A stretch of DNA of 60,850 bases, taken from positions 1 to 60,850 of IMG/VR virus record IMGVR_UViG_3300034990_000021, one strand, 5' to 3'. Origin of the DNA: a virus (lineage: Duplodnaviria > Caudoviricetes). The notes beneath the pieces are model-generated. The model was given only the letters and a program-made list of their open reading frames with translations. It had not been told where the DNA came from and did not search any database. Made by a program: the position numbers and the translations under genes. Below are positions 34,345 through 48,618 of the stretch, piece after piece; position 1 is the first letter of the stretch; each line of letters opens with the position of its first letter.

Positions 34345-34680
34345 ATGACTAAAGACGTGCTATCAAAGGCCCTAGATCGGTTGGGGCTATACTATCTACC
34401 GTATCACTTAGACTGCAGTCCGCACAACACGTTCGAAGAGTGGTGGTGGTGGTGGTGGTGTGTAATAATGCAAGATAACCACAATACTACTATTATAGGA
34501 CTTGAGGTCGCAACGATGATCTTCAGACTAAGCTCAGCCCTGGTCAGGTACCCAGATTTGCAGTCGGACTTGGTGGGGTGTTACATACACCTGACTGTCT
34601 CAGGGGGTAACCTCGAAGACGTACCGTGGCCAATTATCGAAGAGGGTTTAGATCAATATTGGGGGAAACATGCCCAGTAA
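34345..34680 (+). CDS. Unknown family A paralog 4 (W6 expansion)
   Basis: NLEDVPWPIIEE; the family's WW is expanded to six Trp. Confidence 0.8.
   Translation: MTKDVLSKALDRLGLYYLPYHLDCSPHNTFEEWWWWWWCVIMQDNHNTTIIGLEVATMIFRLSSALVRYPDLQSDLVGCYIHLTVSGGNLEDVPWPIIEEGLDQYWGKHAQ
34441..34458 (+). repeat. (TGG)6 microsatellite
   Basis: Read directly. Confidence 0.95.
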
Positions 34681-35128
34681 TAACAAGCCGGCAATTATTG
34701 GGCCCCGAGAATGGCTCTATCGATGCGTCGAGCGCGCGATCGAAACCGAGTGCAAATTATTTATGGCGCCGTACACTGACGCACTCAAAGCTCTCGATGC
34801 GGGCGAACGGTCGCTGCCAATCACAGAAAAGCCAGGACCTACATTCCACGAGCTTGCGTTGTCGTGGGCACATGAGGTCGGCACGTCGGGATTGGTCGTG
34901 TCCCGAGATCTCGACCTGAAGACTGGCCGGCGCTGCAACCAGTTTCTGATCGCAGACAAACTGGTCTTGAACGAACGCCAATGGGAGCTGTGCTACAAAG
35001 CCGGTCGGGAATTGCAGAACGAAGGCGTTCGGACTGCGAGCGGCCGTAGTGTAACGCTCCTACTTACCGCACGCATGGCATCAAGTACAACCCACCAAAA
35101 AAGACAAGGGGACGAAAATGGCTCGTGA
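34670..35128 (+). CDS. Hypothetical protein
   Basis: Overlaps both neighbours in the operon. Confidence 0.65.
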   Translation: MPSNNKPAIIGPREWLYRCVERAIETECKLFMAPYTDALKALDAGERSLPITEKPGPTFHELALSWAHEVGTSGLVVSRDLDLKTGRRCNQFLIADKLVLNERQWELCYKAGRELQNEGVRTASGRSVTLLLTARMASSTTHQKRQGDENGS

Positions 35129-35603
35129 TTCGCGAAGAAACCCATATACTGGAGATACCTTAGTCAGATCCGACGGAACACTCGCACTTTACGTGCTTGA
35201 GGTTACCCCCAATGATGGGTGTGTGACTTACCGTGTTTTTGATCGTCTTGAGCGATTACTATATGAGCGCAAAATAAAACTATCTGAGTGGAGGAAGTTA
35301 AAGTGGGAGGCTAAAGCGTACTGGGAAGTAAGCACTGACGAGGATATATCTACGAACCGCGATCCAAGAAATGACCCGCGCGAGGGAGATGTGATGGTCC
35401 ACTCCGATGGATCTGGTCTGTGCGTATGGAGCACAGAACTTTCCAACGACGGGCCGGTAACTACTCACACTGTAGGGTTACGCGGTAGCCCTGTAGGGTT
35501 ACGCGGTAGCCCTAATAAAGAGGTTACATGGGATCTAAGCGACTGGCGGAAATTTGATTGGACGGATTATACGCCAACCAGAAGGTGTAGTAGGAAAGGT
35601 TAG
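35118..35603 (+). CDS. Unknown family B paralog 1 (two RDPRxxPxxGD units)
   Basis: Internal duplication; 21-bp tandem duplication at 35471-35512. Confidence 0.8.
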   Translation: MARDSRRNPYTGDTLVRSDGTLALYVLEVTPNDGCVTYRVFDRLERLLYERKIKLSEWRKLKWEAKAYWEVSTDEDISTNRDPRNDPREGDVMVHSDGSGLCVWSTELSNDGPVTTHTVGLRGSPVGLRGSPNKEVTWDLSDWRKFDWTDYTPTRRCSRKG

Positions 35604-35612
35604 GGGACGAAA

Positions 35613-36506
35613 ATGGTTCGCGATCCTAGGAAAGCCCCATGCACTGGGGATACGCTAATCAGATCTGATGGGACACTTGCACTCTACGTGCTTGCGTCTG
35701 ATCTACACAATGATTGGGTACTTTATCGTGTTTTTGCCCCCTCCACCCGACTCAGTGCCGAGTACAAAAAAGCTCTAGCTAACTGGCGGGAGATAAGCGA
35801 GGCATATTTGGAAGATGGGGCACACTGGCAAGTAAGCACTAATACAGACGCAATTACTGAGCGTGATCCGAGAAAGGATCCACGCGAGGGGGATATGATG
35901 CTCCACTACAAAGGGCATGGCCTCCGCGTGTATAGAACAGCAGAATGGGCCGTGTTTGCCGAAACTGTAACGGCATCCGGCAAATCCAAGAAAGTTGCAA
36001 AGAGCCTATCTAGCTGGCGGAGGGTCGACTGGGTAAGCTACACGCCAATCAGAAGGTCTAGCAAGCCGGTTGCATTGCAGGACGGGGGAAAAACAGCTGG
36101 AGTTGCCACCACCACCACCACCACCACCACCACCACCACCACCGTCACCAAAAAAACCTGTGGCCACACGGGCCGTGAACCGATTAGTTACGTCAGGCCC
36201 GAACTGGTTGCCTGCCTAAGCCCAAACGTAGTTACGGAGTTACTCACTGTACAAACCCCTGAAGAGGTGCGAGCAACTGTAAAAGCCACTGACATAGCGG
36301 CCGCGGAAAACGCTGAGGCGAGGCTGCGCAAAAAAATCAGAGACTGGCCGTTTTGTCCGTACGCCGGGCGTAACGTGGAGCTGAAGATATTATTTCGCGA
36401 CAATGCGGATGGCTGTTACGCCTACGCTTGTTGGTACTGCCCGCATTGCCACCTAAGTGGTATTACACCCCAATTAAAATTGACGCATCGGTATGGTGAG
36501 GTATAA
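35613..36506 (+). CDS. Unknown family B paralog 2 with poly-Thr linker and Cys-rich C-terminal domain
   Basis: Same leader AGGGGACGAAAATGG and N-domain as 35118; T12; CWYCPHC. Confidence 0.8.
   Translation: MVRDPRKAPCTGDTLIRSDGTLALYVLASDLHNDWVLYRVFAPSTRLSAEYKKALANWREISEAYLEDGAHWQVSTNTDAITERDPRKDPREGDMMLHYKGHGLRVYRTAEWAVFAETVTASGKSKKVAKSLSSWRRVDWVSYTPIRRSSKPVALQDGGKTAGVATTTTTTTTTTTTVTKKTCGHTGREPISYVRPELVACLSPNVVTELLTVQTPEEVRATVKATDIAAAENAEARLRKKIRDWPFCPYAGRNVELKILFRDNADGCYAYACWYCPHCHLSGITPQLKLTHRYGEV
36108..36143 (+). repeat. (ACC)12 microsatellite
   Basis: Read directly. Confidence 0.95.
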
Positions 36507-36747
36507 AATGCCAAAAAGTTTTGACAGGCGAGTTTTGGATCGCTTAATAAACTACCTCCAACGTCCGAGGTCTTTCGGGGCCATTAAGGCCAAGCTTGAT
36601 GTCGACAGAGCTACGGTATACGTGTGGCTCCGGCGGGCTGATGAAACAGTGCGTGCACACGGTCAGGAGTTAGTACTCCGCGACAGTCTAAGTGGGCCAA
36701 AGATGCGACGCTACCAACTCATAGGTACTGGGGAGATGCTACAATGA
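36493..36747 (+). CDS. Helix-turn-helix protein
   Basis: PRSFGAIKAKLDVDRATVYVWLRR; stop overlaps the first hexapeptide gene. Confidence 0.7.
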   Translation: MVRYKMPKSFDRRVLDRLINYLQRPRSFGAIKAKLDVDRATVYVWLRRADETVRAHGQELVLRDSLSGPKMRRYQLIGTGEMLQ

Positions 36748-37403
36748 CCTTAGAGACATTTGACTTTGGCGATGGCAAAGGGCCCGTCCCGGCGCGTCGG
36801 CACAGCAATGGTAATGGGTGGGTCGCCAACACAGCCTATGTTGCCCCATCCGCTTACGTAGGCCCCGATGCTCAAGTGCGCGACTCCGCCCAAGTGCTTG
36901 ACAATGCGCAGATAGGCGCCTGGGCAAGGGTATATGGTAATGTTGTAATAAGTGACCGTGCAATGGTGGGAGGTAGCGCAAAAGTATCTGACCACGCACG
37001 GATACGCGACGAAGCCGTAGTATTTAGCTACGCACGGGTACGGGATTACTCACTGATATGTGATGAGGCTTTAGTCGGTGGCCATGTGCTGATACGTTAC
37101 CATGCCCAAGTACGAGATCGCGCACGGGTGTACGGGTGGGCGGTAATATGGCATAACGCAATAGTATGTGATGACGCAAGGTTATATGACAATGCGCATG
37201 TGTACAACCGCGCACAGGTATGTGGCAGTGCAGTTGTAGGCGGGTCTACAGTAATGTACGACCAGGCTGTAGCGTGCGGCAACGCGACTGTAGGTGGCCA
37301 TGTGGTGTTGTGTGATAGAGTCATTGTATGTGGGCACGCCAGCCTAAAGGGCACCACCAAGATCGGAGGCGCGCAAATTGTGTGGGGGGCTTGCGTGCTC
37401 TGA
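36744..37403 (+). CDS. Hexapeptide-repeat (LbH) protein 1, distinct subfamily
   Basis: RH.NG.GWVA.TA.V start, then [VI]x[DG]xA[RQV] hexads. Confidence 0.85.
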   Translation: MTLETFDFGDGKGPVPARRHSNGNGWVANTAYVAPSAYVGPDAQVRDSAQVLDNAQIGAWARVYGNVVISDRAMVGGSAKVSDHARIRDEAVVFSYARVRDYSLICDEALVGGHVLIRYHAQVRDRARVYGWAVIWHNAIVCDDARLYDNAHVYNRAQVCGSAVVGGSTVMYDQAVACGNATVGGHVVLCDRVIVCGHASLKGTTKIGGAQIVWGACVL

Positions 37404-37429
37404 GACGTCGTTTTTTTCGTTTTTTTTTG

Positions 37430-37467
37430 TTGCAATCCTCGAAAAAATCGCCGATACTATGATCATG
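37430..37467 (+). promoter_or_regulatory. Repeated early-type promoter, copy 1
   Basis: T-tract, TTGCAA-17-GATACT-6-ATG; spacer contains AAAAATCGCC. Confidence 0.7.
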
Positions 37468-37497
37468 ATGACGACGACACAAACCGAGGAGACAGCG

Positions 37498-37731
37498 ATG
37501 AGGATCCAAAACGGCGATATCATCTATCTTGGTCGTGCGGGCGGTGCGGACCTGGTAGCCACAGTGGCTAACGACAAAGTGACCATGGCCCACGGCGATC
37601 AAATCACCGCCGAGCTCGAGCTGGCCAGCCTGCCCGCCGATGTGGAGGCCGCAATAGTCCGCGCCAAGGCAAAAAATGCCAGAGACCAAGCCAACCGTTA
37701 CTCCATGTGCCCATCGGGAGGTGTCAGATGA
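37498..37731 (+). CDS. Hypothetical protein (in-frame upstream ATG at 37465)
   Basis: GAGGAG RBS; follows the promoter. Confidence 0.65.
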   Translation: MRIQNGDIIYLGRAGGADLVATVANDKVTMAHGDQITAELELASLPADVEAAIVRAKAKNARDQANRYSMCPSGGVR

Positions 37732-38030
37732 CCACTACCCAGCAATTTACATCGGTGCTAAGCAAGTACGTCCGGGGTCATCCCAGTTACCGTACGGAGG
37801 CAGGCGTCCTGAGGGGTGATTGGGTGGCCGACTGCACTGCCAACAACCAGCCAGCGCAGGACATCATTGCCCAGATGGGTAATTGGGCAACGGTGGATCT
37901 CGAGTTGGACGCAGCCGGCAACTACCGCGTGTGGGTGGAGGGGCCCTGCAGGGGGCATTGGTTAACGTGGGAGGATCTCGACTACCTCGAGACCTGGATC
38001 AACCAACGGTCTCGCGGGCCGGAGGGCTAG
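37728..38030 (+). CDS. Hypothetical protein
   Basis: GGAGG RBS, ATGA overlap. Confidence 0.65.
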   Translation: MTTTQQFTSVLSKYVRGHPSYRTEAGVLRGDWVADCTANNQPAQDIIAQMGNWATVDLELDAAGNYRVWVEGPCRGHWLTWEDLDYLETWINQRSRGPEG

Positions 38031-38059
38031 GTAGCACTACCATCAGCAGGGAGGCAGCA

Positions 38060-38509
38060 ATGATCGACGAGACAGCGGTGGTCCACCCGACGGCGGTGAT
38101 CCACCCAACAGCCCGCATAGACGCCAAGGCTCGCGTGGGAGCTGGCGCTTACGTAGGCGCTGATGCTTACATAGGTACTGGGGCCTACGTAGGCGCCAAG
38201 GCTTACATAGGCAAGAGGGCTTGTGTGAGCGCTGGGACCTGTATTGGTGAGGCGGCTGTAGTGTTCGCGAGGGCCACCATAGGCAATGGGGCTCGCGTAG
38301 GCGCGCTGGCCTGTGTGAGCAACGGAGCTCATGTGGGCGATCGTGCTATTGTAGGCGATGAGGCTCGCGTGGGCGCTGGGGCCATCGTGGGGGATGGGGT
38401 CACCGTGGGTACTGGGGCCATCGTGGGGGATGGAGCCCGTGTGAGTGCTGGGGCCCATATTGCCGAGGGGGCTCGCGTAGACGGTAAGGTTAAGGGGGGC
38501 GCAGGATGA
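38060..38509 (+). CDS. LbH paralog 2 (149 aa)
   Basis: GGAGG RBS; MIDETAVVHPTAVIHPTA then [VI]GxxAx hexads. Confidence 0.88.
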   Translation: MIDETAVVHPTAVIHPTARIDAKARVGAGAYVGADAYIGTGAYVGAKAYIGKRACVSAGTCIGEAAVVFARATIGNGARVGALACVSNGAHVGDRAIVGDEARVGAGAIVGDGVTVGTGAIVGDGARVSAGAHIAEGARVDGKVKGGAG

Positions 38510-39060
38510 TCCATGAGACTGCACAAATACATCCAACGGCTGTGGTCCATCCAACAGCCAACATAGACGCCAAGGCCAATATCGGAGCTGGGGCTCGTAT
38601 AGAAGATGGAGCATACGTAGGTGAGAGAGCTTGTGTGGGCGCTAAGGCCATCATAGGCCCCTCAGTGCACATAGGCGCTAGAGCTATTGTAGGCAGCCTA
38701 GCTGATACGAGCATTGGGGTCTATGTGGGCGCCAGAGCTCGCGTAGGGGCGCAGGCCTACATTGGGGACGGGGCCGCTGTGGGCTTTGGAGCTACCCTAG
38801 GCGGTAGGGCCCGTGTGGATTATGGGGCCGTTGTAAGTCCTAGAGCTACCATTGGGAGCGAGGCTAGTATCAGCCCTCAGGCCCATGTGGGTGTTGGGGC
38901 TAATGTAGGACGTAATGCCTATGTAGGCTCTGGCACTCACGTGGGGGACGGCGCTCACCTGGGTACTAGAGCACGTGTAGGCCGCTGGGCGCGTATAGAC
39001 TCACAAGCTAACGTGGGCCATCGGGCTCGTGTAGACAATTATGCCCATGTGAGGAGATGA
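38506..39060 (+). CDS. LbH paralog 3
   Basis: MIHETAQIHPTA; ATGA coupling. Confidence 0.88.
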   Translation: MIHETAQIHPTAVVHPTANIDAKANIGAGARIEDGAYVGERACVGAKAIIGPSVHIGARAIVGSLADTSIGVYVGARARVGAQAYIGDGAAVGFGATLGGRARVDYGAVVSPRATIGSEASISPQAHVGVGANVGRNAYVGSGTHVGDGAHLGTRARVGRWARIDSQANVGHRARVDNYAHVRR

Positions 39061-39557
39061 TAGTGATCCACGAGACCGCGAAAGTGCATCAAACAGCAAA
39101 GGTCCACCCAACAGCCCATATAGACGCCAAGGCTCGCGTAGGCGCTGGGGCCACCGTGGGCGCCGAGTCCCGCGTGGGCTTTAATGCATGTGTGGAAAGT
39201 GGAGCCGGTATAGGTGCTGCGGTCCGTATTGGCGATCGGGCCAACATAGGCTTTCAAACTTGTGTGGGTGACGGGGTTACTGTAGGCGATGAGGCCCACA
39301 TAGACGATTGCGCCAACGTAGGCACCAAAGCCTATGTAGGTCGTGGAGCCAATGTGAGCGGTTGGGCTCACATAGGTACCGAGGCTAGTATAGGTGATTG
39401 GGCTAGCGTAGGCGTGGGAGCCTACATAGGCGATGGGGCATGTATAGGCCACTGGGCTCGGATTGGTTACGCTGCCCATGTATACAGTGGGGCGCGTGTG
39501 GGGGGCGGAGTCCGTGTGGATCCTAGAGCCATTGTAGATTGTGGGACCTGCACGTAG
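39057..39557 (+). CDS. LbH paralog 4
   Basis: IHETAKVHQTAKVHPTA; ATGA coupling. Confidence 0.88.
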   Translation: MIVIHETAKVHQTAKVHPTAHIDAKARVGAGATVGAESRVGFNACVESGAGIGAAVRIGDRANIGFQTCVGDGVTVGDEAHIDDCANVGTKAYVGRGANVSGWAHIGTEASIGDWASVGVGAYIGDGACIGHWARIGYAAHVYSGARVGGGVRVDPRAIVDCGTCT

Positions 39558-39587
39558 TAACTCTACTCGGTAGGCAGGAGATGGACA

Positions 39588-40022
39588 ATGGGGATCCACA
39601 AGACTGCAAGGGTGCACTCAACAGCAATAATACATCCAACAGCCAACGTGGGCGCTGGGGTCATCGTGGGAGAGTGGGCCCGCATATGCGCTAGGGCCAA
39701 AATCGACTACGGGACCATTATATGTGCTGGGGCAGGCGTAGGCCACGACGCTAACGTAGGCGCTAGGGCTTATGTAGGCCCCATGGCCATTGTAGGTCGT
39801 AGGGCTACCCTAAAATACAAAGCTTGGGTGGACGACTGGGCCCACGTGGGCGACGAGGCCTATGTGGGCGTTGAGGCCCGCGTGGGTATCTGGGCTACAT
39901 TAGGACATGGAGCTCAAATAGGTAATGGCGCCACAGTGGGCGCCAGGGTCCGCATTGACGCTCGGCACACCGTGGGTAACGATGTTACCGTTATGACTAA
40001 TACCAAGGAGGGCGTAGGATGA
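39588..40022 (+). CDS. LbH paralog 5
   Basis: MGIHKTARVHSTAIIHPTA; AGGAG RBS. Confidence 0.88.
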   Translation: MGIHKTARVHSTAIIHPTANVGAGVIVGEWARICARAKIDYGTIICAGAGVGHDANVGARAYVGPMAIVGRRATLKYKAWVDDWAHVGDEAYVGVEARVGIWATLGHGAQIGNGATVGARVRIDARHTVGNDVTVMTNTKEGVG

Positions 40023-40372
40023 TCCACACAACTGCACAGGTCCACCCGACGGCGGTGATCCACCCAACAGCCCATGTGGGGGCGGGAGCTCACGTGGGGG
40101 CTAAAGCTCGCGTATGCGCCGGCGCTCACGTAGGCAATGGAGCTCATGTGGCCCATTGGGCCCATGTGTGTTGTGGGGCTCATGTGGGGGATGGGACCCG
40201 CGTGGATGTCGGGGCTACCATAGGAGTCCGCGCTACTGTGGGCAACGAGGCCTACATCGGCGTTTTGGCCATCGTGGATAACGGGGCCGCTGTGAGCGAC
40301 GGGACCGTTGTGAGCGATGGGGCCGTTGTGGGTAGCCGGACCCATACCGCAACGTGCGGGACGCCAAAGTAA
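40019..40372 (+). CDS. LbH paralog 6
   Basis: MIHTTAQVHPTAVIHPTA; ATGA coupling. Confidence 0.88.
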   Translation: MIHTTAQVHPTAVIHPTAHVGAGAHVGAKARVCAGAHVGNGAHVAHWAHVCCGAHVGDGTRVDVGATIGVRATVGNEAYIGVLAIVDNGAAVSDGTVVSDGAVVGSRTHTATCGTPK

Positions 40373-40391
40373 TTATCATGGAGAGACCAAA

Positions 40392-40805
40392 ATGATCGAC
40401 AAGACCGCAAGAGTGCATCCGACAGCGGCGGTACACCCAACAGCTCACATAGGCGCCAAAGTCTATGTGGGTGCTGGGGCTCGCGTAGGAGAGGGAGCTC
40501 GCATAAGCAGCGGAGCTCGTATTGTCTATGGGGCCATTGTAGGCAATTTGGTGCGTATAGCACCCCATGCCTGCGTGGATGCTGGGGCCACCGTGGGGGC
40601 TGAGGCTCACATAGACATGTGGGCCTATGTGGGTGTTAGAGCCACCGTAGGCGCCAAAGCTCATGTGGGCAGGGGGGCCGGCATAGGCGCGGGGGCTTAC
40701 GTTGGTACTAGGGCCCATATCACTGAGGGGGCCCGCGTGAGTGACGGAGCTTGTGTGGACGACGATGCTGTCGTAGACGCTGAGGTCAAGGAGAGTACGG
40801 GATGA
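40392..40805 (+). CDS. LbH paralog 7 (137 aa)
   Basis: GGAG RBS; MIDKTARVHPTA. Confidence 0.88.
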   Translation: MIDKTARVHPTAAVHPTAHIGAKVYVGAGARVGEGARISSGARIVYGAIVGNLVRIAPHACVDAGATVGAEAHIDMWAYVGVRATVGAKAHVGRGAGIGAGAYVGTRAHITEGARVSDGACVDDDAVVDAEVKESTG

Positions 40806-41395
40806 TCCATGAGACTGCGAGGGTGCATCAAACAGCAGTGATACACCCAACAGCCTACGTGGGTGCTAAAGTCTATGTGGGGGAGGGGGCTCATGTAGGG
40901 GAGGGTGCTCAGGTAGGAGATAGAGCTCGTATTGCCTGCAGGGCTATTGTGGCCAGTTTGGCGCGCATAGACCAAAATGCTTTTGTGGGTACTGGGGCCA
41001 GTGTAGACGTCGAGGCTACCATAGGCATATGGGCCTTTTTGGACGTTGGGGCTACCGTAGGCGCTGGGGCTCGTGTGGACGGGTGGGCCTTTGTAGGTAA
41101 CGGAGCCATTGTAGGTATTAGAGCACATATACGCAGGGAGGTTACTATATGCAGCATGGCCCGTGTGGGCGCCTCGGCTCGCGTGGGTGCGTGGACCTAT
41201 GTAGGCGAGGAGGCTTATGTGGGTAACAACGTCTATATAGGTAGCTCAAGCATTGTGGACGCTGGTGCTCACGTGGGTGCCTCGGCCATTGTGGGGGCCA
41301 GGGCCTATATTGCTGAGGGGGCTCGCGTAGGTGAGGGGGATCGTACAGACGATGATGCTACCGTAAGTAGCAAGATTGATGAGGGTACAGGATGA
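40802..41395 (+). CDS. LbH paralog 8
   Basis: MIHETARVHQTAVIHPTA; ATGA coupling. Confidence 0.88.
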   Translation: MIHETARVHQTAVIHPTAYVGAKVYVGEGAHVGEGAQVGDRARIACRAIVASLARIDQNAFVGTGASVDVEATIGIWAFLDVGATVGAGARVDGWAFVGNGAIVGIRAHIRREVTICSMARVGASARVGAWTYVGEEAYVGNNVYIGSSSIVDAGAHVGASAIVGARAYIAEGARVGEGDRTDDDATVSSKIDEGTG

Positions 41396-42468
41396 TCCAC
41401 GGGACAGCACGGGTACACCAAACAGCGGTCATCCATCCATCAGCCCATGTGGGAGCGGGGGCTTGCGTAGGCGCTCGGGCATTTGTGGGCGCTATGGCCT
41501 ACGTGGGCGACGGAGCTCATATTGAGGAGATGGCCCATATAGGTGATGGGGCTAATATAGGCCCCGAGGCCTATGTAGGTCACAAGGTCGAGGTGAGTCG
41601 TGGGGCTGTTGTGGATCGCGAGGCCCACGTGGGTAACGAGGCCTACGTGTGTATGTGGACTCATGTGGGCTGTTTGGTGCGTATAGGTCCCAGGGCCCAT
41701 GTGCACTATCTAGCTTATGTAGGTGCCCAGGCTAAGGTGGGTGATTGGGCTTACGTGGGTCCTAGAGCTCGCATAGGAGATTGGGCTTACGTGGGTGATT
41801 GGGCCCGTGTAAATGTCGCGGCTAGAGTAGGTGATTATGCCTACGTGGGCGCTAGGACTACCATAGGTGATAGAGCTACAGTAGGTACCAGAGCGCGTGT
41901 GGGCGGGAGGGTCTACATAGGTAATGATACTGTCGTAGGCGTCCGAGCTATCATAAGCAGCGGTACTCACATAGGCGCTGAGACCACTGTGGTCGACGCG
42001 GCCACCGTGGGCGATGAGAGGCGCACAGTGGTACGCATCAAACCCCTACACCCTGATTTGGGTTCGTCCATCCCGCTGCCCACGCGAATGAGCGAGCAGG
42101 CGGCTGGTCTGGATTTGGCAGCAGCCGTAGATGAGCCGCGCACATTGAAACCAGGGGAACGTGCTCTGATTCCTTGCGGGTTCGCCATGGCTCTCCCTGT
42201 TGGGCACGAGGCGCAAGTGCGCCCGCGCAGTGGTTTGGCGGCACACCACGGCATCAGTGTACTCAGTGCGCCGGGGACTATCGATGCCGACTATCGCGGC
42301 GAAGTCAAAGTCATAGTGATCAACCTGGGTAATGAGCCTTTTGTCGTGCAAAAAGGCATGCGCATTGCTCAGATGATTATCGCGCCGGTGCTAGCTCCTG
42401 AGATCGAACTAGTCACCGAGCTCGATAGTACAAAGCGCGGCCAAAATGGGCTCGGATCAACCGGGTAG
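41392..42468 (+). CDS. dut: LbH paralog 9 fused in frame to a trimeric dUTPase
   Basis: About 210 aa of hexads, then AAGLDL, RPRSGLA, PGTIDADYRGE, RIAQ, RGQNGLGSTG. Confidence 0.9.
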   Translation: MIHGTARVHQTAVIHPSAHVGAGACVGARAFVGAMAYVGDGAHIEEMAHIGDGANIGPEAYVGHKVEVSRGAVVDREAHVGNEAYVCMWTHVGCLVRIGPRAHVHYLAYVGAQAKVGDWAYVGPRARIGDWAYVGDWARVNVAARVGDYAYVGARTTIGDRATVGTRARVGGRVYIGNDTVVGVRAIISSGTHIGAETTVVDAATVGDERRTVVRIKPLHPDLGSSIPLPTRMSEQAAGLDLAAAVDEPRTLKPGERALIPCGFAMALPVGHEAQVRPRSGLAAHHGISVLSAPGTIDADYRGEVKVIVINLGNEPFVVQKGMRIAQMIIAPVLAPEIELVTELDSTKRGQNGLGSTG

Positions 42469-42490
42469 TTACCAAGGAGGCAAGCAACAC

Positions 42491-42676
42491 ATGCGCTCAG
42501 TCAAACGCATGGATTCACCGGAGTCCCGGAGGTTCTGGGCACAACTAGACAAAAACCGCGAAGAGGTCGCGGGTTGGCCCGAATGGAAACGCCAGACGCC
42601 AGTAGCCGATCCGCCGCTCCCACGCAGCCCACTTGAGGCGTTGGAATGCGCCATGGACTGGGCAGTTACTAAGTAG
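42491..42676 (+). CDS. Small hypothetical protein
   Basis: AGGAGG RBS; the ExRxFWxxLDK motif is shared with 53869. Confidence 0.6.
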   Translation: MRSVKRMDSPESRRFWAQLDKNREEVAGWPEWKRQTPVADPPLPRSPLEALECAMDWAVTK

Positions 42677-42799
42677 GTAGAGGAGATTGCTATGTTCAAA
42701 CCGAATCCTAGTCAGAAATGGTACGAGAAGGCGATCAAGTGTGAGGGCGATCACGACATCTACTTGGGCCCATCACATCGGACAAGGAGGCAAGCAGCA

Positions 42800-43534
42800 A
42801 TGATCCACGAGAGTGCTAAAGTGCATCCAACAGCGACCATCCACCCGGGTGCTCACGTAGGCCCAAATGTCCATGTGGGTGCTAAAGCCGTTGTGGGAGT
42901 TGGAGCGCACATAGGCCGTGGGGGTTGTGTGGGCGACGCAGCCTACGTGGGACCTGACGCTTATATAGGCCGTAGGGTCAAGATAGGTAACAACGTCATC
43001 ATTGGTACCGCGGCCGACCTGGGCGCCGATGTTATCATAGGTGATGAGGCCCGCATTGATGCCGAGGTCCGCATAGGTACCAAGGCCATAATAGGCCGAC
43101 AGACACATGTAGGCACCACGGCCCGCGTATTCCCTGTGGCTCGTGTAGGTGCCGATGTCAGTGTAGGACCGTGGGCGTGGGTGGGTCACATGGTCCGTGT
43201 GGGTAATGGAGTTGTCATAGGCGTCGAGACCAATATTGGTGACAAGGTCCATGTGGGTGCCGACGCCCGCATAGGTCTCAGGGTCGAGGTGGGCAGTGAC
43301 GCTAACATAGGCGCCAAGGCCGTTGTGGATGATGAGGCCTATGTAGGTGTTGAGACTCACATAGGGGATGGAGCCCACATAGGCGTCGGAGCCAACATTG
43401 GTGCTTGGGCCTGCATTGGGGCTGGGGCCCATATAGGGGATGGGTCTTGGGTAGACTCTCGAGCCGTTGTAGGCAGGAGAGCCCATGTTGCAGCGTACAG
43501 TAGGACACGCGCGCTCGGGGAGGCGCCAAAATAA
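42800..43534 (+). CDS. LbH paralog 10 (244 aa; in-frame upstream start at 42692 possible)
   Basis: AGGAGG RBS; MIHESAKVHPTATIHPGA. Confidence 0.88.
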   Translation: MIHESAKVHPTATIHPGAHVGPNVHVGAKAVVGVGAHIGRGGCVGDAAYVGPDAYIGRRVKIGNNVIIGTAADLGADVIIGDEARIDAEVRIGTKAIIGRQTHVGTTARVFPVARVGADVSVGPWAWVGHMVRVGNGVVIGVETNIGDKVHVGADARIGLRVEVGSDANIGAKAVVDDEAYVGVETHIGDGAHIGVGANIGAWACIGAGAHIGDGSWVDSRAVVGRRAHVAAYSRTRALGEAPK

Positions 43535-43558
43535 TTTTTGCGGAGTCTCACTTTTTTG

Positions 43559-43596
43559 TTGCAGTGACCGAAAAAATCGTCGATACTAGGATCATG
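43559..43596 (+). promoter_or_regulatory. Repeated early-type promoter, copy 2
   Basis: T-tract, TTGCAG-17-GATACT-AGGATC-ATG. Confidence 0.7.
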
Positions 43597-43887
43597 ACAA
43601 AGACACCAAAAATCAAGGTCATTAAGCAGCTCTCAGGTAATTACGTACTCCGGATTGCCCGCTTCCGCGATTTCGGCCCGTCAGACGAGCTGAAAGTCTG
43701 CAAGACACTCCGTGATGTACAGGCCGACCTTAGCTCCCGCTTCGGGCAGCGTCACGATTGCCCCTCTAAGTGGCCAGAGGGCAAAAAAGAGGTGACAGTC
43801 AGCATCGCGTATCGACTCACCCCTGTGAGTCAGGACTACGACCACTCCGCACCAATCACTATCACTCCGGCATCATGGCCATGGTGA
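43594..43887 (+). CDS. Hypothetical protein, probably leaderless
   Basis: ATG at the predicted TSS; no SD sequence. Confidence 0.6.
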   Translation: MTKTPKIKVIKQLSGNYVLRIARFRDFGPSDELKVCKTLRDVQADLSSRFGQRHDCPSKWPEGKKEVTVSIAYRLTPVSQDYDHSAPITITPASWPW

Positions 43888-44498
43888 GATCTCGCCAATT
43901 ACTCCTCACTGTACGCAAGGTCATGTCCTGGCGACCGTGTGAGGACTGGCCCGAGAGGCGCCTGCTCGAATATGCTGCAGGTCGTAAGAGTGTCAGCGTT
44001 ATCACTGTGCTACGTGACGAAACTCTCTCTACGGGTGCCCGTATCTTTGTGGGAGCAAATGCGTTGCAAGGGCGCCATGCAGAGATTGGGTATTGGGCTG
44101 CCGATAGAGCGGTGCACATCCACGCGCTCGCTGCGCTAGAGATGTACGATCACCGCGAGCAGGCTGATCTCATACGTGCGCTGCCACCTGTTACTAATGT
44201 AGCGCCCGCTAGGATAGCACACCGTATGTGCAGGGAGGCAAGACATGGGATGCAGTCTGGGTATGCGACCGACGCGCTCGAAGATGCTTCACGGGCGGCC
44301 GGCCATGCATACCCTAGCAGAGAAGCTGCGTTTTTCGAGCAGCCTCCCACGGATCTCTGGCAAGTACTACAGTACGCGGCCAGGGCGGCTCAGGCGCCGA
44401 TTGAGGACAGGCACCCCACGACACTATCCGCAGCCTTTCGCGCAGAGCAACTAGTACATATTAACCATATACTTGATTTTATTGATGAAAAAAGTTGA
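43881..44498 (+). CDS. Ala-rich helical hypothetical protein
   Basis: Overlaps the upstream gene; SWRPCxxW motif. Confidence 0.65.
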   Translation: MVRSRQLLLTVRKVMSWRPCEDWPERRLLEYAAGRKSVSVITVLRDETLSTGARIFVGANALQGRHAEIGYWAADRAVHIHALAALEMYDHREQADLIRALPPVTNVAPARIAHRMCREARHGMQSGYATDALEDASRAAGHAYPSREAAFFEQPPTDLWQVLQYAARAAQAPIEDRHPTTLSAAFRAEQLVHINHILDFIDEKS

Positions 44499-44518
44499 TC
44501 ATCCCGTGTCGATTTTGC

Positions 44519-44556
44519 TTGATACCTGCGACAAAATCGTCGATACTAGGATCATG
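44519..44556 (+). promoter_or_regulatory. Repeated early-type promoter, copy 3
   Basis: TTGATA-17-GATACT-AGGATC-ATG; shares AAAATCGTCGATACTAGGATCATGA with copy 2. Confidence 0.7.
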
Positions 44557-44629
44557 ATGACAACGACAACGACGACTGACGGCGAGCCACTGTTGGTTGG
44601 CGCCATCCAATTTTAAAGGGGCAAAGACA

Positions 44630-45046
44630 ATGACCAAAGAAGATTTTGACAGTCTACCAGACGCCGACTGTTTGCCAAATGCGGCGCAGCAGAGGAGACT
44701 GTACGAATTGGCCAAATTGTCGCGTGATAGAGCGACAAGATCCTACAATAGTTTTGTTGGGGCCGATTCGGCTGAGGCGTACGTACACGATTTGATCGCC
44801 GACATCTACGGGGTCGTGGGCTCTGGTAAAGATGCTGGCGCTGTTATCCAATTGAATTTGGGTAAGTGGCGTAGATATGCGGCAGATCAAAATGATCGTG
44901 TAGACAATGCCCCAAAGATGCCCAAAAGGCACCCTAGAGGGGGGCAACCCGTAATTGCCCACCGATGGGTATCACCCGATTTATTTGGTAGTTATCTACC
45001 ACATGTCAAGGGTATGATTGACAAAATCAAAGGACCACAACGATGA
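44630..45046 (+). CDS. Hypothetical protein
   Basis: AGGGG RBS then MTKED. Confidence 0.65.
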   Translation: MTKEDFDSLPDADCLPNAAQQRRLYELAKLSRDRATRSYNSFVGADSAEAYVHDLIADIYGVVGSGKDAGAVIQLNLGKWRRYAADQNDRVDNAPKMPKRHPRGGQPVIAHRWVSPDLFGSYLPHVKGMIDKIKGPQR

Positions 45047-45282
45047 TGACGATGTACCATTTGGACGGGGGACCACTGAGGTCTCTACAGTATCTACTGC
45101 AACGTGCGGCTCGGCACTGTCGCACACAGGACCTTGAGGCTCTGCGGTCCTGGGCAGAGGATCCAAGGCGTAGGGACGGTGACAAGTGGGTGTCACCACT
45201 CCGCTATACCTGTGGGACTGCAGCCGGCCAGCCACGACTCGTGGTAACTGCAGCGGTTCGTCAAGGACCGGGGGAGTGCGAA

Positions 45283-45867
45283 ATGATCGACAAGACGGCA
45301 GTGGTGGACCCAACGGCGGTGATCCACCCATCAGCCAGTATAGGCATTAAAGCCTACATCGGCAAGGGGGTTGTAGTAGGCGCCCAGGCTCAAATAGGCA
45401 ACGGGGCCCACGTGAGCGATAAGGCCCACATAGGCGCCCAGGCTCAAATAGCCGGGTGCGTCTATATAGAGACCATGGCCTGCGTAGATGACCACGCCAG
45501 TATAGAGGCTGGGGCCCATGTAGGATCAAGGGCACGTATTGGGGAGGGGGCTATTATAGGCCCCGAGGTCTCTATCGGGGCTGATGCCAATGTGGGCTGC
45601 GGAGCTCGTGTAGGTCTATGGGCTCGCGTGGGTGGTTGGGCCCGCATTGAGGCTGAGGCCCACGTGGGCACTCAGGCCAACATCGGCATCGAGGCACACG
45701 TAGGTGCCAGAGCTCGTGTGGGCAATGACGCATCCATTGGCGCCATGGCCGCCATCGGAAACGGGGCCATCGTGGGTACTAAGGCCTCCGTGGGCGACCG
45801 GGCCACTGTCAGGGAGGGGGCTAACGTAGGTGATGGAGCTTACGTGGCCACCGACAACGAGCAGTAG
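45283..45867 (+). CDS. LbH paralog 11 (194 aa; an in-frame 80-aa N-extension from 45043 is possible)
   Basis: GGGGAG RBS; MIDKTAVVDPTAVIHPSA. Confidence 0.85.
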   Translation: MIDKTAVVDPTAVIHPSASIGIKAYIGKGVVVGAQAQIGNGAHVSDKAHIGAQAQIAGCVYIETMACVDDHASIEAGAHVGSRARIGEGAIIGPEVSIGADANVGCGARVGLWARVGGWARIEAEAHVGTQANIGIEAHVGARARVGNDASIGAMAAIGNGAIVGTKASVGDRATVREGANVGDGAYVATDNEQ

Positions 45868-45937
45868 TAGCTCTGCCACGCCCCCATGCTTGCGGGCCTG
45901 GGGGCTAGGCAGCGTTACCACCAGCAAGGAGCCGGTA

Positions 45938-46402
45938 ATGATCGACGAGACAGCAACGATAGCCCCATCAGCAACTATCCACCCGACAGCAATCATCCAC
46001 CCGGGCGCTCACGTAGGCGTTAATGCAGTTGTAGGCCGCGATGTCATCATAGGTAGTAGAGCTAAGGTGGGCGACCGAACTATCGTGTGTGGTGGGGCTA
46101 CCGTAGGTAATGGGGCTACCGTAGCTCCCTGGGCCTATATTGGTCCTGGAGCCCACGTGGAGGCCAAAGCCAATGTGGGTTATGCAACTACAGTAGGCCC
46201 TTGGGCCCGTGTGGGCAGTGGGGCTCGCATTGCCTCCGAGGCCATTGTAGCCCAAGAGGCTGTCATAAGTGACAGAGCACATGTAGGGGCTGGGGCCCGT
46301 GTAGGAGCGGGGGCACATGTTGGGGAGGGGGCCTGTATCAAAAGCGGGGCTATTGTAGGTGATGGGGCCCGCGTAGAAGATTGGGACACCGTAAACCCCT
46401 AG
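45938..46402 (+). CDS. LbH paralog 12 (154 aa)
   Basis: AAGGAG RBS; MIDETATIAPSATIHPTA. Confidence 0.88.
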   Translation: MIDETATIAPSATIHPTAIIHPGAHVGVNAVVGRDVIIGSRAKVGDRTIVCGGATVGNGATVAPWAYIGPGAHVEAKANVGYATTVGPWARVGSGARIASEAIVAQEAVISDRAHVGAGARVGAGAHVGEGACIKSGAIVGDGARVEDWDTVNP

Positions 46403-46429
46403 ATTACCACCAATTAACGAGGTGATGAC

Positions 46430-47116
46430 ATGATCCATCAGACCGCGGTAATAGACCCATCGGCGACTATCCACCCGTCGGCCTATGTAGGTGCTGGAGC
46501 CCGCGTGGAGGCCAAAGCCGATGTGGGCAGTCGGGCCAGCGTGGGCTGTGGTGTACGTGTGGGGCGCGGGGCCCATGTAGGGTGTGGAGCAAACGTGTGC
46601 ACTGGCGCCAATGTGGATGCTGGCGCATACATAGACAACAGAGCTCATATAGGCAACTACGCTCGCGTGGGTACCAAGGCACATGTGGGAGTTTGGACTG
46701 TTGTAGATGCCGGCACCCTTGTTGGTGCTGGAGCCTACATAGGCCCGGAAGCCCGCATAGGTGCTGCGGTCTGTATTGGCATTGATGCTCATGTGGGGCA
46801 CCAGACCCACGTGGGCGTCGAGGCCTACATAGGTGATAAAGCCTGTGTGGGTGACAAGGCTAACATAGGCGTTAGAGCCCGTGTGGGTTACAGAGCCTGC
46901 GTAGGTAATGAGACTTACGTGGGCAACTGGACTGTCGTGGGCAGGGGGGCTCACGTTTTTGACCGGGCTAACGTAGGTGATATGGGCTACGTGGGTGTAG
47001 GGGCCCGCGTAGAGTATGGGGCCCACGTGTGGGAGGGAGTACACGTAGGCGATGGGGCTCGTGTTGAGCCCGGAGAGCTGCTGCTGGAGTCGAGATACGA
47101 CTGTCAATACGGTTAG
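46430..47116 (+). CDS. LbH paralog 13
   Basis: GAGGTG RBS; MIHQTAVIDPSATIHPSA. Confidence 0.88.
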   Translation: MIHQTAVIDPSATIHPSAYVGAGARVEAKADVGSRASVGCGVRVGRGAHVGCGANVCTGANVDAGAYIDNRAHIGNYARVGTKAHVGVWTVVDAGTLVGAGAYIGPEARIGAAVCIGIDAHVGHQTHVGVEAYIGDKACVGDKANIGVRARVGYRACVGNETYVGNWTVVGRGAHVFDRANVGDMGYVGVGARVEYGAHVWEGVHVGDGARVEPGELLLESRYDCQYG

Positions 47117-47161
47117 GCAATGGGGCTACAAATGATGACGATGATGACAGGAGCATAAGGG

Positions 47162-47716
47162 ATGATCCATAGGTCAGCTCGGGTACACTGGTCAGCAGAC
47201 ATCCATCCATCCGCGCACATATTGCCCGGGGCTTATGTTGGCGCTAAAACTCATGTGGGCAAGGAGGCTATCATTGGGTATGGGGCCCGCGTGAGTGCTG
47301 GGGCTTATGTTGGTGCTAAAACTCATGTGGGTATGGGGACTTACGTAGGTGCTAAAGCCTACATAGGCAACGGTACTAACGTGGGTGACAAAGTATCTAT
47401 AGGCCCCAGGGCCCGTGTGGGCAATCTGGCTCGTGTGCATATCAGAGCCCGCGTGTGTAGTAACTCTCACGTATGCTCAGGAGCCACTGTGGGCAGTGGG
47501 GCTTACATAGGTGCCTGTGCTCATGTGGGTACCAAGGCCCGTATAGATGGCGGCGCTCGCGTAGGCAGGGGGGCTCGTCTGGGCAGAGCGGTCCGCGTTG
47601 GCATTGAGGCTCACATAGGCACTGGAGCCTACATAGGCACCCGGGCTGTCATAGCCGACGGTGCTCGCGTGAGTAACGGAGACCGCGTGGGCACTTGCGT
47701 CCACGTAGGTACTTGA
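47162..47716 (+). CDS. LbH paralog 14
   Basis: MIHRSARVHWSADIHPSA; shares identical blocks with paralog 15. Confidence 0.88.
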   Translation: MIHRSARVHWSADIHPSAHILPGAYVGAKTHVGKEAIIGYGARVSAGAYVGAKTHVGMGTYVGAKAYIGNGTNVGDKVSIGPRARVGNLARVHIRARVCSNSHVCSGATVGSGAYIGACAHVGTKARIDGGARVGRGARLGRAVRVGIEAHIGTGAYIGTRAVIADGARVSNGDRVGTCVHVGT

Positions 47717-47734
47717 TCGGCTGAGGGCGTAACG

Positions 47735-48433
47735 ATGGTACATGAGACTGCGCAAGTACACTGGTCTGCAAGCATCCACCCAACAGCCCACATATGGCCC
47801 AGGGCCTATGTTGGTGCCAAAGCTCATGTGGGCAAGGAGGCTTTCGTTGGGTATGGGGCCCGCGTGGGTGTCGGAGCCAACATTGGTACTTGGGCCAGTG
47901 TGGGCGATCGGGCTCGTATCAGTAGGGGAGCTCATGTAGGCTTTGATACGCGTGTGGGTATGGGGACTTACGTAGGTGCTAAAGCCTACATAGGCAACGG
48001 TACTAACGTGGGTGACAAAGTATCTATAGGCCCCAGGGCCCGTGTGGGCAATCTGGCTCGTGTGCATATCAGAGCCCGTGTGGGGAGTGGAGCTCACATT
48101 GCCTCCGGGGCCATTGTGGCCAGTGAGGCTTACATAGGTGCCTGTGCTCATGTGGGTACCAAGGTCCAAGTGGCCACTAAGGTACGTATAAGCTCCAAGG
48201 CCTATGTAGCTGATGGGGTCAATATAGACACAAAGGCTTACATAGGTGCCAAGGCCCGTATAGGTGGCGGCGCTCGCGTAGGCAGGGGGGCTCACGTGTG
48301 CAGGGCGGTCCACGTGGGCGTTGAGGTTTACATAGGCACTGGAGCCTACATAGGCACCCGGGCTGTCATAGCCGACGGTGCTCGCGTGAGTAACGGAGAC
48401 CGCGTGGGCACTTGCGTCCACGTAGGTACTTGA
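47735..48433 (+). CDS. LbH paralog 15
   Basis: MVHETAQVHWSASIHPTA. Confidence 0.88.
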   Translation: MVHETAQVHWSASIHPTAHIWPRAYVGAKAHVGKEAFVGYGARVGVGANIGTWASVGDRARISRGAHVGFDTRVGMGTYVGAKAYIGNGTNVGDKVSIGPRARVGNLARVHIRARVGSGAHIASGAIVASEAYIGACAHVGTKVQVATKVRISSKAYVADGVNIDTKAYIGAKARIGGGARVGRGAHVCRAVHVGVEVYIGTGAYIGTRAVIADGARVSNGDRVGTCVHVGT

Positions 48434-48592
48434 GCGCAGATAGACACTGGCGCATACGTAGGCGACGGAGCCTGTGTAGGCATTAACGCACACATAGGTT
48501 CTTGGGTCCGCGTGGGCGCTATGGCTACCGTGGCTAGTGGGGCTCGCATAGAGGCCGGGACCAACATAGACGATGGGGCTTACGTATGGTGA
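48434..48592 (+). pseudogene. In-frame LbH tail stranded behind the stop of paralog 15
   Basis: After TGA the same frame reads AQIDTGAYVGDGACVGINAHIGSWVRVGAMATVASGARIEAGTNIDDGAYVW*. Confidence 0.75.
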
Positions 48593-48618
48593 TTCCGGGG
48601 GGACACGGAGAGCAAGAG

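Follow-up and report, generated by a model that had tools for sequence, protein, structure and literature searches.

The window, the whole 60,850-nt stretch analysed here, is a linear IMG/VR contig (CheckV completeness 62%) of an uncultured tailed phage from a wetland. Between positions 36,744 and 48,433, embedded in a block of replication and nucleotide-metabolism genes, its plus strand carries 15 genes for left-handed beta-helix (LbH) proteins, one YdcK-like (g01) and 14 paralogs with a common N-terminal cap (g02 to g15). This agrees with the count of the initial annotation, as does the length of the capped paralogs, 117 to 244 aa from the cap Met (for g09, the 214 LbH residues are counted), and in a Pfam scan all 15 proteins scored above the cut-off of PF00132 Hexapep (38 to 104 bits versus 27). 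The end of the array, previously placed at 48,592, had to be moved: the last LbH gene stops at 48,433, and a ThyX-type thymidylate synthase of 547 aa (48,586–50,229, plus strand; PF02511, 139 bits in two stretches) lies directly 3′ of it. The LbH coding sequence totals 8,331 nt or 13.7% of the window, close to the earlier figures of about 8.5 kb and 14% of the genome, but as the contig is linear and 62% complete, the percentage holds for the contig only.

The first gene, g01 (36,744–37,403; plus strand, as are all genes of the array), encodes a 219-aa LbH protein of another subfamily, with YdcK-like repeats (PF00132, 56 bits, and PF18836 YdcK repeat) and a non-LbH N-terminal motif, TFDFxDGxGPVPA; it matches phrog_7964 (3.8e-43) and phrog_5070 (5e-38). 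The capped genes begin with g02 (38,060–38,509; 149 aa, 24 hexads), g03 (38,506–39,060; 184 aa, 30 hexads, pI 10.2) and g04 (39,057–39,557; 166 aa, 27 hexads), the latter two each joined to the preceding gene by an ATGA start/stop overlap, of which the array has five. They continue with g05 (39,588–40,022; 144 aa, 23 hexads), g06, the shortest (40,019–40,372; 117 aa, 19 hexads), g07 (40,392–40,805; 137 aa, 22 hexads), g08 (40,802–41,395; 197 aa, 32 hexads), g09 (41,392–42,468), in which a capped LbH part (residues 1–214, 35 hexads) is followed by a complete trimeric-type dUTPase (about 213–358), and g10, the longest (42,800–43,534; 244 aa, 40 hexads). Further downstream lie g11 (45,283–45,867; 194 aa, 32 hexads), g12 (45,938–46,402; 154 aa, 25 hexads), g13 (46,430–47,116; 228 aa, 37 hexads), g14 (47,162–47,716; 184 aa, 30 hexads, pI 10.6) and g15 (47,735–48,433; 232 aa, 38 hexads, pI 10.4). 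The pI of the capped paralogs spans 5.6 to 10.6, and each of the 14 has a GGAG/GAGG-like Shine–Dalgarno site 6 to 10 nt 5′ of the cap ATG. The frames of g10 and g11 are open further upstream, so that these genes could start at 42,692 and 45,043, respectively, the latter with a possible 80-aa extension. Minus-strand ORFs of up to 379 aa across the array are by-products of the periodic sequence.

A 67-nt element occurs three times on the plus strand. Copy 1 (37,423–37,489) contains TTGCAA-17 nt-GATACT followed by the ATG of a small gene and precedes the g02–g10 block, copy 2 (43,552–43,618) is immediately 3′ of g10, and copy 3 (44,512–44,578; 72% identical to copy 1) precedes the block with g11–g15. 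The pattern of the element has two exact matches versus none expected by chance, and a promoter scan picked up TTGATA-17-GATACT in copy 3. Copy 1 is a candidate promoter and leader for the g02–g10 block. The early expression proposed previously was based solely on gene position.

Hexad register, cap and predicted fold

The near-uninterrupted hexads described in the initial annotation are confirmed: from residue 2 onwards, all 14 capped paralogs stay in one register as far as their C-terminus, and their 414 complete hexads are free of insertions and loops. Among the framework positions earlier called nearly fixed, position 1 is V/I in 402 of 414 hexads (97%), position 2 is Gly in only 253 (61%) and so does not merit the term, and position 5 is Ala in 317 and A, V or T in 395. 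Entropy is lower at positions 1 (1.1 bits), 2 (2.1 bits) and 5 (1.3 bits) than at positions 3 (3.7 bits), 4 (3.3 bits) and 6 (3.4 bits), the last three being those stated to vary. The LpxA-like cap, M-I-[HD]-x-[TS]-A-x-[VI]-H-P-[TS]-A, is present too, and five columns of the 14-paralog alignment (A6, A12, H15, P16 and A18) are invariant; outside the cap, the conserved columns are four scattered framework Ala/Gly only. The C-termini of the proteins fall inside a hexad or just beyond one, carry only short polar tails and lack a helical domain. Modelled with AlphaFold2 (mean pLDDT 80), g08 shows a two-residue strand per hexad and neither helix nor loop. The three prism faces are alike in hydrophobicity, position 6 being 18 to 23% hydrophobic on each, and no conserved trimer interface is visible from the face hydrophobicity of the paralogs.

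A profile of the 14 paralogs found WlbB (3mqg, 2.6e-16), LpxD (2iu8, 1e-15) and LpxA (6oss, 1.1e-15) among solved structures, with the cap aligned to their N-terminal turns. Both the hexapeptide [VI]-G-x-x-A-x and, in the first turn, the motif x-[VI]-H-P-T-A-x-[VI] are common to these proteins and the paralogs but, unlike LpxA and LpxD, the paralogs lack loops, the C-terminal helical domain of LpxA, the N-terminal domain of LpxD and a conserved His. By sequence, they appear to derive from LpxA/LpxD/WlbB-type proteins, yet they belong to none of those enzyme families.

Paralog divergence and a second strain

The paralogs are 30 to 65% identical in amino acids and mostly 58 to 75% in DNA, and by this divergence we regard them as old duplicates. 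The gene closest to g07 is the adjacent g08 (63% aa and 73% nt identity over the first 54 residues), and g14 and g15 share DNA stretches 79 to 87% identical. Over the 91 pairs, identity is 60% at framework and 21% at surface positions. The dN/dS of the closest paralog pairs is 0.3 to 0.9, with 0.3 to 0.66 in three of four segments and 0.9 in one g14/g15 segment, making purifying selection evident from the coding sequences. In the two closest pairs, dN/dS is equal at framework and surface positions, and non-synonymous changes are no more frequent at the surface than in the framework. These values do not support the proposed binder library with selected variable surfaces. The richness in W, Y, H, R and C noted earlier is explained by codon neighbourhood: YRY codons account for 60% of hexad position 6 and RRR codons for 61% of position 4, and the observed residues are those expected from transitions in a simple V-G-A/D-G-A-R/H repeat. 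The variable surfaces could therefore reflect drift constrained by the fold only.

Contigs from a second wetland sample of another study represent a strain (X2) about 90 to 95% identical and cover the array at about 87 to 93% identity. X2 lacks precisely the g02 unit, 446 nt measured between start codons, and has g05 fused to g06 at a hexad boundary, with frame and hexad register preserved (joint 39,971→40,238); most members of the array are retained. The missing and fused genes imply that single members are dispensable, and a diverged version with a unit deletion and a fusion indicates that the array is altered by unequal recombination and is no assembly artefact.

The array could also be seen as a recombination-prone hexad repeat that was amplified and tolerated, most copies having little or no function. 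In line with this, gene number and boundaries vary between strains only about 7 to 13% apart, mutation alone yields the observed surface composition, dN/dS reaches 0.9 in one segment and the periodic sequence keeps antisense frames open as well. We nevertheless consider this unlikely: despite their long divergence, all 14 paralogs have kept the start, Shine–Dalgarno site, cap and an intact frame, together with the 97% V/I at position 1, dN/dS is 0.3 to 0.66 in the remaining three segments and X2 retains most members. Some 8 kb of ballast would also be unusual, such sequence being rare in phage genomes.

Possible mode of action of the rods

We give a probability of roughly 0.5 to the reading that the array encodes LbH rods without catalytic activity, probably trimers, whose surfaces mediate their action. 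Each capped gene provides only the LpxA/LpxD/WlbB-type first-turn cap and 19 to 40 perfect hexads, the predicted product being a bare triangular prism of about 6 to 13 turns, made singly from translationally coupled operons. Such rigid rods probably bind something via the outward-facing hexad positions 3, 4 and 6, and candidate targets are proteins of the host or of the phage, among them perhaps the LbH trimers of the host. The initially suggested action against host defences, poisoning of trimers and capping of polymers would be putative roles; PADLOC, which catalogues defence but not anti-defence proteins, gave no match.

The oligomeric state is suggested by g09. Its two parts are recognised by Pfam (PF00692, 113.6 bits; PF00132, 85.7 bits), the dUTPase also by NCBIfam (NF001862 dUTP diphosphatase, 185 bits versus a cut-off of 103), and the AlphaFold2 model is confident over residues 1–180 and 213–340. 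The last hexad leads directly, without a linker, into the first dUTPase strand, and the region is contiguous also in X2. Trimeric-type dUTPases assemble their active sites from three subunits, and the linker-free fusion to an obligately trimeric enzyme suggests a parallel trimer for the rods, as in other LbH proteins. The fusion had been overlooked in the initial annotation.

In carboxysome CcmN, dynactin p25/p27 and eIF2B epsilon/gamma, the LbH fold is purely a rigid protein-binding module, and the array most plausibly works like these non-catalytic scaffolds, although they are single-copy components of defined complexes. Matches to the models of eIF2B-epsilon LbH, dynactin p25 and CcmN were weak (PF25084, 26 to 60 bits; PF21711; NF053793, 28.6 bits) and represent generic LbH similarity, the PF25084 cut-off being barely passed by g10 and g15 only; the CcmN model score was far under its cut-off of 100. 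The pentapeptide-repeat DNA mimics Qnr, MfpA and AlbG are likewise regular non-enzymatic solenoids, but they have another repeat length and cross-section and a uniformly acidic surface, unlike the wide pI range of the array, and although Foldseek weakly matched such proteins with the modelled g08 (E about 1e-3, TM 0.2 to 0.3), these TM-scores are too low to be meaningful.

Instead of binding as separate rods, the prisms, having no C-terminal capping domain, might polymerise end to end, each by itself or with others, into filaments similar to those of bactofilins, which are also small, loop-poor beta-solenoids; such filaments would serve to organise the replication of the phage or would perturb the host cell. 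The endings of the paralogs would permit this, copolymers are conceivable with the cap and cross-section common to all, and g01-like proteins are named "polymer-forming cytoskeletal protein" by NCBI in 3 of 40 phage records among the matches listed. On the other hand, bactofilin solenoids are right-handed and built from another repeat and none of the 15 proteins matched Pfam Bactofilin at E ≤ 0.01, the acidic or charged last turns of several paralogs (e.g., VDDDAV-VDAEVK) would oppose stacking and the paralog lengths spread two-fold, making polymerisation rather improbable.

The products could also be active acyl- or acetyltransferases, each with its own acceptor among sugar nucleotides, envelope precursors or, via the neighbouring dUTPase and ThyX, modified DNA bases. 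The best solved relatives of the profile and the adjoining nucleotide-metabolism genes fit with this, and as LbH enzymes bind acyl-CoA in the grooves between subunits, a trimer of bare prisms would keep such grooves. Yet the only non-LbH family matched in Pfam scans of the 15 proteins (E ≤ 0.01) was dUTPase/DCD on g09, and the LpxA C-terminal, LpxD N-terminal and NeuD N-terminal domains had no Pfam match in the paralogs. No LbH part reached an NCBIfam enzyme cut-off, the best scores being 109.6 versus 242.5 for LpxD, 102.4 versus 226 for LpxA (both less than half) and 102.8 versus 160.8 for NeuD, and the matches span only the LbH part of the models. A conserved catalytic His was looked for and not found at equivalent hexads: eight of the 14 paralogs have His at position 3, never in equivalent hexads, and six have none. 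Some small sugar N-acetyltransferases of the LbH fold are said to need no catalytic base, so the missing His alone does not exclude catalysis. However, the proteins have no loop or C-terminal extension able to close an active site, and fourteen enzymes with unrelated surfaces would require fourteen substrates. As no enzyme cut-off is reached and little is conserved beyond the cap, the paralogs are most likely non-enzymatic, as the initial annotation had concluded from the missing loops and helical domains, and we find transferase activity quite improbable.

That the assembly misjoined or inflated a shorter repeat is hardly credible: the similar g14/g15 stretches and the short Logan contigs of the probable source run between 47,355 and 48,404 would allow it, but one 7,312-nt contig of that independent assembly covers 40,044–47,355 with zero differences, further contigs abut across 36,157–40,068, a diverged array exists in X2 and the other paralogs are too different in DNA to confuse an assembler.

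Copy number and origin of the array

An unusually large expansion had been claimed, and the comparison agrees: the capped family has one or two genes in each of 13 IMG/VR records and four cultured phages carry one to three LbH genes per genome, so that the 15-gene expansion is exceptional among the phages examined. The paralogs match phrog_5353 (2e-42 to 1.8e-23), which like PHROGs 7964, 5070 and 2154 consists of phage-encoded hexapeptide proteins with no assigned function; in the other phages examined, such genes are single or paired, unlike the array with its dUTPase-fused member. As to the origin of the rods, the ancestor would be a pair of one g01-type and one capped gene, and the family probably grew through unequal homologous recombination, with the conserved caps and hexads as sites of exchange, a process by which members may still be gained, lost and fused. 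Genes similar to g01 are present in 64 cultured-phage records. In a complete 42.5-kb IMG/VR phage (G004), a single capped gene, with 46% identity to g03, adjoins a single g01-type gene, with 45% identity to g01, a conserved pairing that had previously gone unnoticed.

A 15-gene array of loop-free hexapeptide repeats

The array of 15 left-handed beta-helix (LbH) genes described in the initial annotation was borne out: all 15 genes, lying on the plus strand between 36744 and 48433, scored 38–104 bits against the Hexapep model PF00132 (cut-off 27). The first gene, g01 (36744–37403, +), has YdcK-type repeats and a non-LbH N-terminal motif, matches phrog_7964 and phrog_5070, and belongs to a subfamily other than that of g02–g15, the 14 capped paralogs. 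The latter are 117–244 aa long and begin with the N-terminal cap M-I-[HD]-x-[TS]-A-x-[VI]-H-P-[TS]-A, with a GGAG/GAGG-like site 6–10 nt 5′ of the cap ATG in 14 of 14 cases. Five junctions of the array show ATGA overlaps, and the semi-conserved C-terminal tails (K-E-G-x-G) overlie the ribosome-binding site of the next gene; their conservation probably lies in the DNA. Starting at residue 2, every paralog holds a single hexad register throughout, giving 414 hexads with no inserted loop. Of the framework positions, position 1 is V or I in 97% of hexads, position 2 is G in 61% and position 5 is A in 77%; the surface positions 3, 4, and 6 are variable. The LbH coding sequence totals 8331 nt, or 13.7% of the window.

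AlphaFold2 predicted g08 as a pure solenoid (pLDDT 80) with a two-residue strand per hexad and no helix, and residues 1–180 of g09 similarly carry a two-residue strand in each hexad; the models show a beta-solenoid, the handedness of which is not given by the output. A Foldseek search of the g08 model against PDB and BFVD was uninformative because the solenoid is so regular, returning only weak matches to beta-helix and pentapeptide proteins (TM 0.2–0.45).

In g09 (41392–42468, +), the 35th hexad leads directly, with no linker, into a complete dUTPase (PF00692, 113.6 vs. a cut-off of 22; NF001862, 185.1 vs. 103; model positions 6–148 of 150), and AlphaFold2 was confident in both parts and weak only at residues 178–208. 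As dUTPases of this type are obligate trimers and LbH proteins typically form parallel trimers, the linker-free fusion is the best available hint, though no more than that, of trimerisation by the LbH rods; a homotrimer prediction of g08, run without controls, scored 0.00 and weighs neither way. The fusion can be seen as a natural experiment on the trimerisation of bare LbH. PF00692 and PF00132 were combined in none of the 120 matches listed of 498 in a set of 5.8 billion proteins, and a metagenome scan with g09 retrieved ordinary dUTPases, with 0 of the 80 loci kept matching the LbH portion that precedes residue 171; the two loci that were opened are bacterial dut genes. We give roughly even odds (about 0.5) that the array encodes non-catalytic, probably trimeric LbH rods acting via their surfaces.

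Divergence, selection, and recombination

With 30–65% identity over the first 54 residues and mostly 58–75% at the DNA level, the paralogs are, by these measures, old. Mutual closest relatives are neighbours (g02/g03/g04, g07/g08, and g14/g15), as predicted by tandem duplication. Across the 91 paralog pairs, identity is 60% at framework and 21% at surface positions. The earlier proposal that the surfaces are selected for diversity was not supported: in four segments of the two closest pairs, dN/dS is 0.30, 0.62, 0.80, and 0.38 at the surface and 0.28, 0.64, 1.01, and 0.38 in the framework, these values being based on few counts and the third segment being in part poorly aligned. Selection is purifying to relaxed, without an excess at the surface.

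Nor could the richness in W, Y, H, R, and C be retained as the signature of a binder. At position 6, where R/H/Y/C stand out, 60% of the codons are of the form Y-R-Y (CGY, CAY, TAY, and TGY), and at position 4, where G/R/E/K/W stand out, 61% are of the form R-R-R (GGR, AGR, GAR, and AAR). Both sets are closed under transitions, and the composition is therefore the expected mutational product of a simple V-G-A/D-G-A-R/H repeat; it does not argue for a paratope-like surface. The three prism faces are alike in composition, with no distinct interface. The paralogs' pI spans 5.6–10.6, for which reason the idea of DNA mimicry was dropped. Separately, a capped LbH gene in the IMG/VR record G001 (locus L009, 10001–10855) is cut off by the contig end at 285 aa, and its very low-complexity VG[DA]GA[RS] hexads are near the simple repeat that seems to have given rise, by divergence, to the paralogs of the window.

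A relative, here called X2, is present in a second wetland metagenome, which stems from a different sample and a different study. Among the listed pieces, letter differences amount to 6.8–7.5% in g03, g09, g10 with its neighbours, ThyX, and the small genes and to 10–13% in g04–g05, g06–g07, and g12–g13, with transitions making up 741 of the 917 differences; the g08 and g14–g15 regions are too divergent for alignment at 90%. X2 lacks a 446-nt stretch, exactly the start-to-start distance from g02 to g03, and the joint falls at the same codon in both caps. Furthermore, codons 1–128 of g05 are fused in frame, at a hexad boundary, to g06 from codon 74 (frames at the joints by arithmetic on the joint coordinates). 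From the deletion and the in-register fusion, we conclude that unequal homologous recombination, acting between its caps and hexads, alters the array, and the comparison displays the growth and shrinkage of a phage repeat-protein family at single-junction resolution. Single members are dispensable and the array is conserved over the distance to X2. That it represents a tolerated amplification with little function, an idea to be weighed against this conservation, we consider unlikely.

The capped family is rare, being found in 13 IMG/VR records with 1–2 genes apiece, and the closest relative of g08 among the 5.8 billion proteins is weak (E 7e-12). Genes like g01 occur in 64 cultured-phage records, and the four cultured phages examined in full have 1–3 LbH genes per genome; set against these counts, the 15 genes of the window are indeed the unusually large expansion they had been taken for. 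In the complete 42.5-kb IMG/VR record G004, a single capped gene with 46% identity to g03 adjoins a single g01-type gene with 45% identity to g01, N-terminal motif included. Such a pair looks ancestral, and in the window the amplification hit the capped partner only; the capped family would have been amplified from this pair via unequal recombination. Copy number in close relatives could be compared via the X2 contigs only, as scans of viral contigs in IMG/VR found nothing for ThyX and PolA and no close relative for TerL (best 52%, on a 6.4-kb contig). Searching cultured phages with the array by megablast gave no match.

Searching 1.84 billion representatives with the profile yielded 49,976 matches, topped by proteins of 400–6379 aa with several LbH modules; the nine inspected have different architectures and are not read-through arrays. 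Four proteins of this library (P0254, P0260, P0265, and P0268; 585–687 aa) contain several capped LbH modules per chain, recognisable by an internal IHPTA, and a non-LbH domain at the C-terminus is common to two of the four; all come with no annotation or context. Small stand-alone bacterial LbH clusters in the ESM Atlas (scores 0.84–0.91) are leads only. The titles and abstract openings searched in the literature included no paper on phage LbH arrays.

Polymers, enzymes, and binders

Assembly of the proteins into bactofilin-like polymers is quite unlikely; the Bactofilin model PF04519 found no match at E ≤ 0.01 among the 15 proteins. An enzymatic role has profile similarity on its side. The solved structures nearest to the profile of the 14 paralogs are WlbB, LpxD, and LpxA (E 1e-16 to 1e-15), the paralog cap aligns with the first turns of all three, and the capped family probably descends from an acyltransferase of this kind. 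The resemblance covers only the LbH core of the NCBIfam enzyme models, and no paralog approaches their cut-offs. Matches to the LpxA models TIGR01852 and NF003657 are confined to model positions 1–70 and reach at best, in g10, 83 and 102 bits (cut-offs 231 and 226); the C-terminal alpha-helical domain of LpxA is absent, the paralogs stopping within or just after a hexad. For LpxD (TIGR01853), g10 is again best with 109.6 bits of the 242.5 needed, and the N-terminal uridine-binding domain PF04613 is unmatched, the LbH part of the paralogs beginning at residue 2. The NeuD/PglB/VioB model TIGR03570 gave at best 102.8 bits in g03 (cut-off 160.8), with the NeuD N-terminal domain PF17836 unmatched in the Pfam scans, and the gamma-class carbonic anhydrase/PaaY/YrdA model NF050158 gave 42.9 at most (cut-off 250). 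At E ≤ 0.01, the only non-LbH Pfam match in the 15 proteins was the dUTPase/DCD of g09.

Outside the cap, which includes H15 and P16, the invariant or near-invariant columns are four scattered framework Ala/Gly. Hexad position 3, which we take to be the site of the LpxA/LpxD catalytic His, holds a His in 8 of the 14 paralogs, in hexads 8, 9, 11, 18, 21, 22, 22, and 29, which are not equivalent between paralogs. As far as the sequence can tell, g02–g15 are not enzymes. The non-enzymatic part of the initial annotation is at this level upheld by the lack of loops, the scores below the cut-offs, and the lack of a conserved His, and unusual acyltransferases are clearly improbable. An assembly artefact is highly improbable: across the array, an independent Logan assembly made from the probable source run shows no differences (one 7312-nt contig spans 40044–47355, with only the g14–g15 part in short pieces), and the second sample holds the relative X2.

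The reading as surface-acting rods allows a more specific, tentative version, which we regard as possible rather than probable: a repertoire of minimal LbH trimers, each with its own surface, encoded by an array in flux through unequal recombination. By binding host proteins, the rods would neutralise them. They might co-assemble with the host's LbH trimers (enzymes for lipid A, peptidoglycan precursors, or O-antigen) or cap them, poisoning them in a dominant-negative manner, or they might instead make up a set of anti-defence binders. PADLOC anti-phage defence models assigned 0 families to 8 LbH proteins and 2 neighbours. Among bacterial viruses, a repertoire of this type would parallel the expansions of ankyrins and other repeat proteins in large eukaryotic viruses, and it would be a new use for the LbH fold. 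The fold itself and the occurrence of phage LbH genes are already known; new are the 15-gene array, its complete lack of loops, the fusion to a dUTPase, and the recombination dynamics seen here. Phage LbH proteins span several PHROG families without known function, and an extreme case with 15 genes on ~14% of a contig makes the family hard to dismiss. The array offers for testing 14 naturally occurring surfaces on a common scaffold. Should the rods bind host targets, they would represent a new class of proteins for host take-over or counter-defence and would also supply protein engineering with a ready-made beta-helical scaffold free of loops.

Genome setting

The record is linear, with 60,850 bp and a completeness of 62% by CheckV. 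Tail, baseplate, capsid, and terminase genes occupy ~4–30 kb on the minus strand, and a plus-strand block extends from 31 kb to the record end and resumes at the record start. In addition to the array, this block contains genes for a D5-type primase-helicase (31091, +), ThyX (48586–50229, +), an SNF2 helicase (55962, +), a macro-domain protein (59629–60081, +; PF01661, 83.8 bits), a UDG-PolA fusion (489–3071, +; 860 aa combining a UDG superfamily domain, a 3′–5′ exonuclease, and a family A DNA polymerase), and a Dam methylase (3248, +). Given these neighbours, the array lies within the replication/nucleotide-metabolism module and not the virion module. With the UDG-PolA fusion, the dUTPase fusion, and ThyX, the phage puts much into excluding uracil from its own DNA. 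ThyX has 547 aa, about twice the usual length, with two Thy1 stretches; it scored 65 bits against TIGR02170, below the cut-off of 87.9, and far above the Pfam cut-off. The macro-domain protein stands alone in the replication block; since proteins of this kind remove ADP-ribose, its gene is possibly one of counter-defence.

Scans of the window for tRNAs and Rfam families came up empty, and a promoter/terminator scan gave no enrichment over shuffled sequence. Two adjoining paralogs upstream of the array (35118–35603 and 35613–36506) share the N-terminal module M-x-R-D-x-R-x-x-P-x-T-G-D-T-L-[VI]-R-S-D-G-T-L-A-L-Y-V-L and matched no family, save weakly phrog_23694; the second has a run of 12 Thr (CCA × 12.7, 36106–36143), at which the contigs of the source run break. 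Farther upstream, two small plus-strand paralogs (33321–33662 and 34345–34680), one with a run of five Trp, flank repeated DNA (33674–34250), and the stretch between them contains two similar minus-strand ORFs, both starting with MATGY; together, these indicate local DNA duplication. Within the array, a 67-nt element occurs three times (37423–37489, 43552–43618, and 44512–44578) and splits it into blocks. It reads TTGCAA/TTGATA, 17 nt, and GATACT, followed by ATG and the opening, Thr-rich codons of a small gene; its appearance is that of a candidate promoter plus leader in repeated form.
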